Of a DNA stretch of 64,000 nucleotides, positions 45,163 through 48,171 are shown piece after piece (position 1 is the stretch's first letter; each line of letters opens with the position of its first letter). The translations under genes and the position numbers were made by a program. This DNA comes from Bacteroidota bacterium (GTDB taxonomy: Bacteria > Bacteroidota > Rhodothermia > Balneolales > HLUCCA01): positions 5,165 to 69,164 of the forward strand of contig JAFIEZ010000003.1 of the NCBI GenBank assembly GCA_020832235.1, given 5' to 3'. The notes beneath the pieces are model-generated. The model saw nothing but the letters and a program-made list of their open reading frames with translations, had not been told where the DNA came from and made no database searches.

Positions 45163-45834
45163 ATGAGTGAGATACATCGAAATAAACTGTCTGAGTCACA
45201 AGAAGATTACCTGAAGAAAATATACGTCTTAGGTGAAGTTGAACCGCAGGTTAGTACGCAGGCTCTTGCAGACCATCTGAAGGTTAAACCAGCTTCTGTT
45301 ACCGGAATGCTCAAAAAGCTGTCGGAGCTCGGACTGGTATCTTATGAGCGTTATAAAGGTGTTCAACTAACTCCGGCAGGTGAGCGTATCGCCGTTGAAA
45401 TCCTGCGACATCATCGTCTTATTGAGATGTATCTTTCTCAGGTGCTGGGTTATTCATGGGATGAAATTCATGATGAGGCCGAACGGTTGGAACATCATAT
45501 CAGTGAGAAATTCGAGGCAAAAATTGCCGAAAAGCTTGGGCATCCGACTCATGACCCTCATGGCGACCCTATTCCTCTCGCAGACCTTACATTTCCCGAT
45601 CAGCCTGCATTGCAGGTGTTAATGGACATTCCTGCAAATACTAAGGTCGTTATAAAAAGGGTCAGAACTCAGGATAGTGATATACTCACCTTGATGAGTA
45701 AGTTAGGTCTGACACTTGAAAAAGAGCTCACCGTACTTTCGCGGGATGCGGATGGAGTACGTATACAATTAGGTAATGATAGGATGCTTGTGCCTGCAGA
45801 TATTGCGCAGAAGATAAACGTAGGTGTTTACTAG
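45163..45834 (+). CDS. mntR: DtxR/MntR-family metal-dependent repressor with C-terminal FeoA/SH3-like domain
   Basis: SQEDYLKKIY, RHHRLIEMYL, HDEAERLEHHIS and DPHGDPIP motifs. Start placed at MSEIHRNK. Confidence 0.85.
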   Translation: MSEIHRNKLSESQEDYLKKIYVLGEVEPQVSTQALADHLKVKPASVTGMLKKLSELGLVSYERYKGVQLTPAGERIAVEILRHHRLIEMYLSQVLGYSWDEIHDEAERLEHHISEKFEAKIAEKLGHPTHDPHGDPIPLADLTFPDQPALQVLMDIPANTKVVIKRVRTQDSDILTLMSKLGLTLEKELTVLSRDADGVRIQLGNDRMLVPADIAQKINVGVY

Positions 45835-45844
45835 TATTCTTGAG

Positions 45845-46549
45845 CTACTTTGTTCGGTGTGCAATACCAGCGGCTTGTTCAACCTCGAGCATAAAAGCAA
45901 TTCCTTTACCAGGCTCATTTAGTTGCGCACGTTCAACAATTGATTTAAGCACTTTTTCACTGATATCTCTTTCAACAAGCGTTAATATGATATCCTTCTC
46001 TGGTTCTATTGCCATCGAAAACAGGGAGCTGGTTTCGTGTATCCCAGAGCCCCTGCCGTGAATAATCGTGCCACCTTCTGCGCCGGCCTCACGCGACGCC
46101 TGCATGACCTCGTCACTGTGGCCGCTATTTACAATCGTTACGATTAAATCGTACAAAACTTCGTTTTCCATGGAATGATTCGTTACAGATTTTCTTGGGT
46201 TTTTTTGAATTTTGCGCCCTATATGCACGCATCCGGCCAATTGCAGTATATCAACAACCAGTGATATACCAGTGTCTGGTTTGTGCAGTTTCATAATGCG
46301 GCGGATGGCTGTGAATACACTTTCTACAACACTGCCACGTGCCATAATTAACACAATTTCCTTCTCAAGGCTCTGACCTAATCCCCATAACGAGAATGTG
46401 CCAGGTGGTGCAGTACCATGCCCTAGAAGGGTGGTTGCACCTTCTGCCCCTGCTTTTTTTGCCGCAGAGATGACTTTAAGCGCAGCACCCTTCTTTACCA
46501 CGGTAAAAATCAGCTTATGTCGCAAATCTGTTGTCGTCTCAGTACTCAT
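45845..46549 (-). CDS. Tandem two-domain PII-like protein
   Basis: Two repeats of AGAEG(A/G)T..(G)xG...EK(E/D)I...G(I/K)..; ATGA overlap with the upstream gene. Confidence 0.82.
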   Translation of the reverse strand: MSTETTTDLRHKLIFTVVKKGAALKVISAAKKAGAEGATTLLGHGTAPPGTFSLWGLGQSLEKEIVLIMARGSVVESVFTAIRRIMKLHKPDTGISLVVDILQLAGCVHIGRKIQKNPRKSVTNHSMENEVLYDLIVTIVNSGHSDEVMQASREAGAEGGTIIHGRGSGIHETSSLFSMAIEPEKDIILTLVERDISEKVLKSIVERAQLNEPGKGIAFMLEVEQAAGIAHRTK

Positions 46550-47280
46550 TGTGAAGATTTATTTTCTTTGAATTTATAGAGTACGCCTAAAGTAAGAACC
46601 GAAAGAATTGGCGCAAGTGCAACCAATGCAATCATTCCAAAACCATCGATGGCGCTTCGCCCGGAGTCTTCTGCACCGGCAATACCCAGAGACAGGGCTG
46701 TAATGAATGTTACTGTCATAGGACCGGTGGCAACACCTCCGGAGTCGAAGGCTATGGCCGTAAATGTTTCACTGGTAAACCATGCCATTACGATAACTAT
46801 GCCATATCCACCGATGACAAAATACATCAACGGTAAGTCATATATAACACGTGCCATACTCAGGGCAATTGAAAATCCCACTCCGATAGATAATGTAATA
46901 AGCATAAGACGCTGAGGAATGTAACCGGCGGTTACTTTATCCACTTCATAATTCAATATACGAACGGCCGGCTCTGCGAAAGTCGCTACAAATCCCAGTA
47001 CAAAGCCTACCGGAATGATAATCCATTTGTAAGGCAGAGCCGCAAATTTTTCACCCATAGCTTCACCAAAGGGAAGAAATCCCACATGAACTCCGTGCAG
47101 AAAAAGAATAAGCCCGAAAAATGTCAGAATCACCCCTTTAATGATGTCAATAATTTTTTGACGGGGGAGTTTGAGGAAAAAAATCTGAAAGAAGATGAAG
47201 AATAGCAGGAGGGGAGCTAGTGCAAAGCTTACTTCCATAACCACGTGATCCAGACCTTTAAGTAAATCAATTTCACTCAT
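46546..47280 (-). CDS. DUF1538 family membrane protein
   Basis: Multi-TM protein with FAEPAV, AFDSGGVATGP and GFGMIALVA motifs. Confidence 0.85.
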   Translation of the reverse strand: MSEIDLLKGLDHVVMEVSFALAPLLLFFIFFQIFFLKLPRQKIIDIIKGVILTFFGLILFLHGVHVGFLPFGEAMGEKFAALPYKWIIIPVGFVLGFVATFAEPAVRILNYEVDKVTAGYIPQRLMLITLSIGVGFSIALSMARVIYDLPLMYFVIGGYGIVIVMAWFTSETFTAIAFDSGGVATGPMTVTFITALSLGIAGAEDSGRSAIDGFGMIALVALAPILSVLTLGVLYKFKENKSSQ

Positions 47281-47969
47281 GAGAAGAACATCCCCAATAT
47301 TAAAACGGCGATGATGGGTCCAATGGAAGCGAGGGCAACCAGCCCGAATCCGTCACCCGATCCTGATTTACCTTTGAGTACAGAGGCTACACCTACACCT
47401 AGTGCAAGTATAAAAGGCACCGCCATAGGACCAGTGGTTACACCGCCAGAGTCGAAGGATATGGGCAGGAAGGTGGGCTCTGAAAACCAGGCCAGAATAA
47501 AAACAACCGCATAGCCGACTGTTAGAATATAGATGATGGGAATACTGAAGATGATTTTCAGCATTGATACGGCAACAAAAAACGCGAGTCCCAGCGCGAC
47601 GGCATATACCAGTATGTTTCGGTCTACAGCCCCTTCAGAGGCGGTATCCACATAAGATGCAAGTACACGCACATCGGGCTCCGCAACCGTTACAACAAAT
47701 CCGAGTATGAAGCTGAACAAGAGTATAAACCAGAGCTTACCGGTTCTGGGCAGTGCCGAACCAATGCGTTCACCAATAGGAAGGAGACCGACATGAACAC
47801 CGAGAAGGAAGAGTATCAGGCCCGTAACCACCATCAGCGTACCGGCAACAAACTGAATGAAAATTGGCCATTCAACCCATATGATGGTGAACTGAAGCAA
47901 GAATACAACTACCGTGATAGGCAGTACACCCATCACAACTTCGTGAACAGTTTCAGATAGATTTGCCAT
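47277..47969 (-). CDS. DUF1538 family membrane protein (paralog)
   Basis: VAEPDV, SFDSGGVTTGP and GFGLVALAS motifs; ATGA overlap with the next gene. Confidence 0.85.
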   Translation of the reverse strand: MANLSETVHEVVMGVLPITVVVFLLQFTIIWVEWPIFIQFVAGTLMVVTGLILFLLGVHVGLLPIGERIGSALPRTGKLWFILLFSFILGFVVTVAEPDVRVLASYVDTASEGAVDRNILVYAVALGLAFFVAVSMLKIIFSIPIIYILTVGYAVVFILAWFSEPTFLPISFDSGGVTTGPMAVPFILALGVGVASVLKGKSGSGDGFGLVALASIGPIIAVLILGMFFS

Positions 47970-47987
47970 AAACTCCGGTTTGGATAA

Positions 47988-48001
47988 TTAGGTATGCCAA
48001 T
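47988..48001. promoter_or_regulatory. Putative DtxR/MntR operator
   Basis: TTAGGTATGCCAAT matches 8 of the 10 fixed positions of TTAGG-N4-CCTAA. It lies 18 nt upstream of the DUF1538 start. Confidence 0.5.
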
Positions 48002-48135: not shown

Positions 48136-48171
48136 AAAAAAACCGGCAAGCGCCAAGGCACTCCACCGGTT
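48136..48171 (-). terminator. Terminator after sucD
   Basis: AACCGG...CCGGTT stem with a poly-U tail on the minus strand. Confidence 0.5.

Follow-up and report, generated by a model that had tools for sequence, protein, structure and literature searches.

Gene content of the locus

The window, by which we mean the whole stretch of 64,000 nucleotides (nt) analysed from contig JAFIEZ010000003.1 of a Balneolales bacterium (assembly GCA_020832235.1), contains an operon of two genes for DUF1538 membrane proteins and one for a PII-like protein, with the gene of a DtxR-family repressor (mntR) beside it (Table 1). The original prediction, made from the sequence, had read this arrangement as a heteromeric Mn2+ importer repressed by MntR and gated by the PII module. 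The open reading frame (ORF) list and the sequence agree on three minus-strand genes with two ATGA overlaps, as had been described; both junctions read TCAT on the plus strand, which is ATGA on the minus strand. The coordinates also agree with a DtxR-family gene lying tail to tail with the operon, its end separated from the stop of the PII-like gene by a gap of 10 nt. The hairpin and T run after sucD, which match only a consensus, suggest that transcription of the operon begins at a promoter of its own, and a promoter scan of the locus gave seven sites against nine expected, none of them useful.

Table 1. Features at the DUF1538 locus, in positions of the window.
Feature	Position	Strand	Description
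DUF1538 subunit A (first gene)	47277..47969	minus	230 amino acids (aa); ORF, PF07556 match
DUF1538 subunit B	46546..47280	minus	244 aa; 38% identical to subunit A
Tandem two-domain non-canonical PII-like protein	45845..46549	minus	234 aa; third gene
MntR-type DtxR-family repressor	45163..45834	plus	helix-turn-helix, metal-binding and FeoA domains; convergent, outside the operon
Originally predicted operator site TTAGGTATGCCAAT	47988..48001	none	weak, non-conserved likeness to an MntR operator
Terminator-like hairpin and T run 3' of sucD	48143..48163	minus	consensus match only

The DUF1538 pair and its relationship to UmpAB

Profile searches matched both subunits to PF07556 over the whole domain (253.5 bits for subunit A and 250.5 bits for subunit B, cut-off 22.6), and AEP and FD(S/A)GG motifs were found in both, which confirms the two paralogous DUF1538 membrane proteins. 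PF07556 was the sole Pfam match of the pair when the known manganese importers (NRAMP, ZIP, ABC permease) were compared. In NCBIfam the only matches were the UmpA and UmpB models (NF041627 and NF041628), with scores of 103-129 bits against equivalog cut-offs of 490 and 500; these scores place the pair as a relative of UmpAB and not as UmpA/UmpB proper. Invariant acidic residues are E97, D99 and D173 in subunit A (43 first-subunit homologues) and E103 and D179 in subunit B (55 homologues). M188 of subunit B was kept in 98% of homologues, and no invariant histidine or cysteine was found in the alignments. Subunit B is fused to subunit A in many relatives. The best-scoring named homologues include Balneolales, Natronogracilivirga, Alkalihalophilus, Evansella and Anaerobacillus, all of them salt or alkali dwellers. 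A protein atlas search with PF07556 skipped gave no usable match.

The predicted model of a fused DUF1538 relative (predicted local distance difference test (pLDDT) 87.8, predicted template modelling score 0.87) consists of two related helical halves, with helix breaks at residues 97, 180-184, 341 and 423-424. In each half one helix is broken at the invariant glutamic acid of AEP, and a helix-loop-helix break occurs at FD(S/A)GGV(T/A)TGP beside the invariant aspartic acid. Broken helices and buried carboxylates are typical of ion-coupled secondary transporters. A PDB sequence search with the fused-transporter alignment gave no matches. Foldseek gave a best E-value of 0.019 and no row at E <= 0.001, and the best result of a wide structural aligner (Z 7.5, root-mean-square deviation 2.8 over 88 residues, a small helical bundle) was in the range of common arrangements; since the model has 478 residues, above the recommended size of the tool, the fold searches show neither a new fold nor a missing relative.

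DUF1538 had been regarded as a family with no assigned function, which is incorrect: UmpAB of Halomonas zhaodongensis, a DUF1538 pair, is a published two-component Na+(Li+,K+)/H+ antiporter (PMC5484666). According to the main text of that paper, both subunits were required to rescue antiporter-less Escherichia coli, UmpA and UmpB co-precipitated as a heterodimer, and the pair exchanged Na+, K+ or Li+ for H+ with an optimum at pH 9 and saturable kinetics (K0.5 0.26-0.46 mM). The words 'manganese' and 'divalent' are absent from the main text, which does not amount to an experimental exclusion of manganese transport by UmpAB. The window pair resembles UmpAB in consisting of two adjacent, overlapping and paralogous DUF1538 genes for proteins of about 230-270 aa with a mutual identity of roughly 40%. 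It differs in belonging to a distant sub-clade, so that antiport is a predicted activity here, and in being followed by a translationally coupled tandem PII-like gene, of which the UmpAB main text makes no mention. The paralogous pairing and the fusions observed here, with the UmpAB heterodimer as precedent, agree with the proposed heteromeric transporter. A literature search on DUF1538 and UmpAB, within its coverage, found no second functional test.

The PII-like protein as conserved partner

Profile searches matched PF00543 in the second domain only (46.4 bits, cut-off 25), and the predicted model (pLDDT 76.5) contains two beta-alpha-beta-beta-alpha-beta domains joined by a flexible linker, in keeping with the two-domain PII-like protein originally described. 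GlnK and GlnB were among the best Foldseek rows (TM score 0.6-0.75 by target length), with unrelated ferredoxin-like folds scoring similarly. No NCBIfam match was found at E 0.01. Canonical GlnB/GlnK proteins bind nucleotides through a B-loop GDGK/R and a C-terminal RxR. The family analysed here has (P)G.GI(A/S)F as its B-loop and no conserved RxR; judged by profile, predicted fold and motifs, the protein is a member of the PII superfamily and not a canonical GlnB/GlnK.

Comparative analysis revealed PII-like domains directly 3' of the transporter in 19 of 19 and a further four of four related genomes (24 of 24 with the window's own), in the form of a single tandem protein, two genes or a three-domain protein. 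A further 89 DUF1538 loci form a redundant set. In 77 of them PII is either fused to DUF1538 or encoded on its strand no more than 300 nt away; in 11 of the remainder the contig ends within 350 nt of the DUF1538 gene, and in one PII lies upstream on the other strand. The same transporter-PII order was found in three annotated plasmid regions inspected, of nine records matched. The PII-like protein, and not mntR, is the true conserved partner of the DUF1538 pair, and the proposal of a dedicated PII-like partner for the transporter is upheld by this linkage.

Among the further loci, subunit B is fused in frame to a PII-like domain at L089:3964-5034, where a CPA (cation/proton antiporter) gene lies upstream on the same strand. 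The PII-like protein has three domains and about 380 aa at L202:6783-9802 and L203:6624-9643, where the DUF1538 protein encoded before it is a fusion of about 625 aa with a long linker. In an archaeal locus (L074:3439-7950) a DUF1538 pair is flanked by two genes on the strand opposite to it, PII upstream and the RuBisCO large subunit downstream.

GlnK-AmtB and SbtB-SbtA are known PII-transporter pairs. The module described here is similar to them in that a PII-fold protein is encoded beside a membrane transporter that it presumably regulates. It differs in that the DUF1538 transporter is unrelated to theirs in sequence, as the empty PDB sequence search indicates, and has no clear fold match; compared with GlnK, the window protein has two dissimilar domains and departs at the B-loop and C-terminus. 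A diadenylate cyclase gene is present in the window's genome and likewise in 11 of 14 control genomes, and hence its presence gives no evidence for sensing of cyclic di-AMP (c-di-AMP).

The repressor and its predicted targets

The best solved relative of the window repressor is Deinococcus radiodurans DR2539 (E 7.7e-49), and all 14 named manganese ligands of DR2539, mapped by motif, are kept: primary D15, E107, E110 and H111; ancillary H84, E88, H103, D131, H133 and D135; tertiary E79, H83, E115 and E118. Its score against NF047407 was 288.7, below the cut-off of 350. Identification of the gene as a manganese-type DtxR/MntR repressor therefore holds on the ligands.

Linkage of mntR to DUF1538 operons, named beforehand as a test of the importer model, was found in a single genus. 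In a search of 61 genomes, DUF1538 turned up in 20 and a DtxR metal-binding domain in 58. A dtxR gene occurs near two of the 19 other DUF1538 loci (regions of 5.7-16 kb), both in congeners, and near none of four loci from a phylum-wide search (9 of 301 positive). Overall, mntR adjoins the DUF1538 operon in 3 of 24 DUF1538-bearing genomes of the phylum, all of one genus. Two genomes of the sister genus (G003 and G006) have the order hisF-dtxR-sucD, uninterrupted by DUF1538 genes. Most genomes of families f4 and f6 carry the module; in the five of these families where an ABC metal-uptake operon was looked for and found, that operon is separate from the module and dtxR is its first gene. In two genomes of family f7 dtxR lies beside a long gene which we take, from its motifs, to be NRAMP-like. 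Within the MntR-led ABC operons of f4 and f6, the ABC metal permease of three loci (L060:8320-9648, L061:9163-10545 and L062:6068-7453; about 440-460 aa) also carries a DtxR-type metal-binding domain.

A palindrome, TTTAG-N6-CTAAA, was identified upstream of manganese-type operons in this lineage. Across 39 loci it has twelve perfect copies. Each of these belongs to a dtxR, ABC, NRAMP-like or receptor gene, and the 19 DUF1538 loci contain none. The operator matrix was trained on 13 sites selected with a pattern that had been spotted by eye, a circular procedure; the checks on the matrix are seven family sites outside training and the published DR2539 site. The published DR2539 operator at dr1709 fits the palindrome (bioRxiv 10.1101/2024.02.12.579695).

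Three exact operator copies with A/T flanks are present in the window's genome (G000), equal to the reversed control (three against three), so that the operator claim rests on position and conservation. One copy, a perfect match, lies 10 nt before a ZIP/ZupT-family transporter gene (G000:C13:417938-418777; L164:1363-2202) and is kept before the orthologues in G001, G003 and G004 (four of four orthologues with G000). The protein is likely the inner-membrane manganese importer of the window's bacterial family. A TonB-dependent receptor gene lies about 300 nt downstream of this gene in G000. The best site of the genome is about 30 nt before a gene for a ZnuD-like TonB-dependent receptor (G000:C10:246778-249056; L070:5779-8057) and is kept before the orthologues in G001, G002 and G003 (four of four with G000). 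This receptor is a candidate for outer-membrane manganese uptake. It shares 40-44% identity with receptors encoded next to MntR operons in other families, and related receptors accompany the dtxR-ABC operons of f4 and f6. The third copy is 12 nt before a gene for an unannotated membrane-like protein of 209 aa (G000:C14:282087; L071:5446-6107) with no NCBIfam match at E 1e-10. In the congener G002, which has MntR and the receptor gene with its operator, neither a close ZIP orthologue nor an NRAMP above the cut-off was found.

Compared with DR2539, then, the window repressor keeps the manganese ligands and has a lineage operator that the DR2539 site fits, and its predicted targets differ, being a ZIP transporter and a ZnuD-like receptor, not NRAMP and not the DUF1538 operon. 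Because the conserved DNA sites of the repressor precede other genes, the adjacent mntR is likely a chance neighbour of the operon, unrelated to it, and the predicted controller of these two genes elsewhere in the genome.

The originally predicted operator and the manganese-importer model

The operator-like site TTAGGTATGCCAAT (14 bp, 18 nt 5' of the ATG of subunit A) is present where it was predicted; its occurrence is not above chance. With two mismatches allowed, the pattern originally given has 17 occurrences in the window, where shuffled sequence predicts 25.2. The site breaks 3 of 10 core positions of TTTAG-N6-CTAAA and scores 1.8 bits against 20-29 for the training sites, and 720 of 3,375,378 genome positions score as well. 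With a matrix from the seven family sites the score is 6.7 bits (rank 177) against 18-29 for left-out sites. Such a site occurs within 220 nt of 149 of 1286 genes (gap of at least 100 nt) and within 60 nt of 37 of them. Conservation before orthologous operons, likewise checked, was not found: the best upstream scores in the 19 orthologous DUF1538 loci are at most 5.3 bits (first matrix) and 10.4 bits (second matrix), none of the 19 has a perfect site, and the upstream DNA of both congeners fails to align at this position and lacks the site. The best operator score of G001 lies inside an inserted gene 217 nt upstream. A search of sequencing runs listed no RNA data set with this DNA. Two DNA sequencing runs of one study showed no change at the site; the strains are near-identical, so this has no bearing on its conservation.

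The model of an MntR-repressed Mn2+ importer, even one confined to the window species and acting through the weak site, is thus very improbable: the site is weak and not conserved, the mntR link is that of one genus, and the conserved operators are elsewhere. It does draw on a repressor that is truly of the manganese type, on the 12 of 16 bases that the site region shares with the best operator of the genome, on its distance of 15 nt to the start codon, like that of real sites (10-30 nt), and on the small share of genes with so good a site within 60 nt. No NRAMP above the cut-off, ZnuA/TroA or FeoB was found in the 97%-complete genome, and G002, as noted, is short of a close ZIP orthologue and of NRAMP above the cut-off. 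Set against these points, besides the low scores and the absence in congeners, the window's genome has a ZIP transporter under a perfect and conserved operator, and module-bearing relatives hold a complete MntR-led ABC operon elsewhere. At most the site may be a weak, species-specific one, and nothing supports it as a conserved feature. With the importer claim failing, what is left here is a further instance of a common module.

Proposed mechanism and alternative explanations

The unrelated loci examined for neighbouring genes number 88 and represent 58 lineages at 85% identity (L073, a duplicate of L032, was left out). In 6 of the 58 non-redundant lineages the module has a gene for a CPA or NhaC antiporter close by, in four of them on its own strand. 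The scan covered 90 of 164 neighbour ORFs, without a background control, and antiporter genes are often multi-copy; these neighbours give mild support to the antiporter reading.

In the proposed mechanism the two DUF1538 subunits probably constitute a heterodimeric Na+(K+,Li+)/H+ antiporter of the UmpAB type, in which E97 and D173 of subunit A and E103 and D179 of subunit B, together with D99 of subunit A, may make the cation/proton site. The substrate cations are taken from one distant homologue, UmpAB, and would be the same here. The tandem PII-like protein probably docks on the transporter and tunes exchange in response to adenine nucleotides. We consider the chances about even that the operon encodes such a cation/proton antiporter tuned by a non-canonical PII partner. 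That DUF1538 and PII form a widespread transporter in which a dedicated two-domain PII switches ion exchange, possibly through adenine nucleotides or c-di-AMP, is a tentative extension with somewhat less than even chances.

Several observations weigh against the antiporter reading. The UmpA/UmpB equivalog cut-offs are far from reached, and hence the substrate is extrapolated from one distant member. UmpAB was active in E. coli without any PII protein, and the main text of the paper mentions neither PII nor P-II (PMC5484666). In the literature covered, E. coli screens like the one that yielded UmpAB also credited several unrelated membrane families with Na+/H+ antiport, so that antiport by UmpAB may be a side activity. 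Many DUF1538 homologues are from gut metagenomes, not alkaline habitats. Genes connected with metals recur next to the module and are almost always convergent with it: 11 of 19 relatives have a ZnuD-like receptor gene nearby (opposite strand in 10), mntP is beside it in 1 of 58 lineages (L127), and a screen of the unrelated loci with a hidden Markov model found a convergent DtxR-family gene after PII in 1 of 58, a gut lineage of 10 loci that are 92-100% identical.

A PII-gated transporter of another solute (for example bicarbonate, another anion or a nutrient, possibly Na+-coupled), with UmpAB antiport as a side activity, is rather unlikely. It would be in line with the role of GlnK-AmtB and SbtB-SbtA in controlling nutrient uptake and with the frequency of the module in gut bacteria, and the scores below the equivalog cut-offs and the results of the E. 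coli screens fit it as well; against it, no catabolic or nutrient gene recurs in the scan of 90 neighbours, the class seen there most often is that of cation/proton antiporters, and the kinetics reported for UmpAB are saturable. Handling of a divalent metal (Zn, Mg or Mn), independent of MntR control through TTAGGTATGCCAAT, is improbable. The carboxylate-rich invariant residues and M188 of subunit B would suit it, as would the metal genes found near the module: those for ZnuD-like receptors and His-rich lipoproteins (11 of 19 relatives), mntP (L127), dtxR-feoAB (lineage of L121) and a CNNM/CorC gene (L117). These metal neighbours, however, are mostly on the opposite strand, vary by lineage and have their own regulatory logic; the DtxR-type boxes of L121 and L157 lie between dtxR and feoA and none is 5' of DUF1538; and the 11 receptor cases are from two families of one order and probably represent one or two events.

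The second ZnuD-like receptor lies close downstream of the DUF1538-PII operon in L033, L034, L036-L039, L041, L042, L044, L046 and L048, usually accompanied by His-rich lipoproteins without a Pfam match; the window's genome carries this receptor gene on a different contig, at C13:170466-173425. The gut loci L121:3893-8663 and L157 consist of a fused DUF1538 gene, a tandem PII gene, a convergent short DtxR-family gene and divergent feoAB, with two TTAG-N6-CTAA boxes in the dtxR-feoA gap.

Significance of the module

DUF1538 is known as a transporter family with one tested member. Its pairing with PII seems undescribed in the literature searched, where no publication on it was found and where subscription journals are mostly outside coverage. 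As a by-product, the analysis yields a small predicted MntR regulon for the window's bacterial family, consisting of the ZIP transporter and the ZnuD-like receptor. The interest of the module is family-wide, since DUF1538 transporters, which are without a solved relative, are nearly always accompanied by a non-canonical PII protein. If PII gates cation/proton exchange, the energy or second-messenger state of the cell would be tied directly to salt and pH homeostasis, and the control exerted by PII proteins would extend from nitrogen and carbon uptake to sodium/pH homeostasis.

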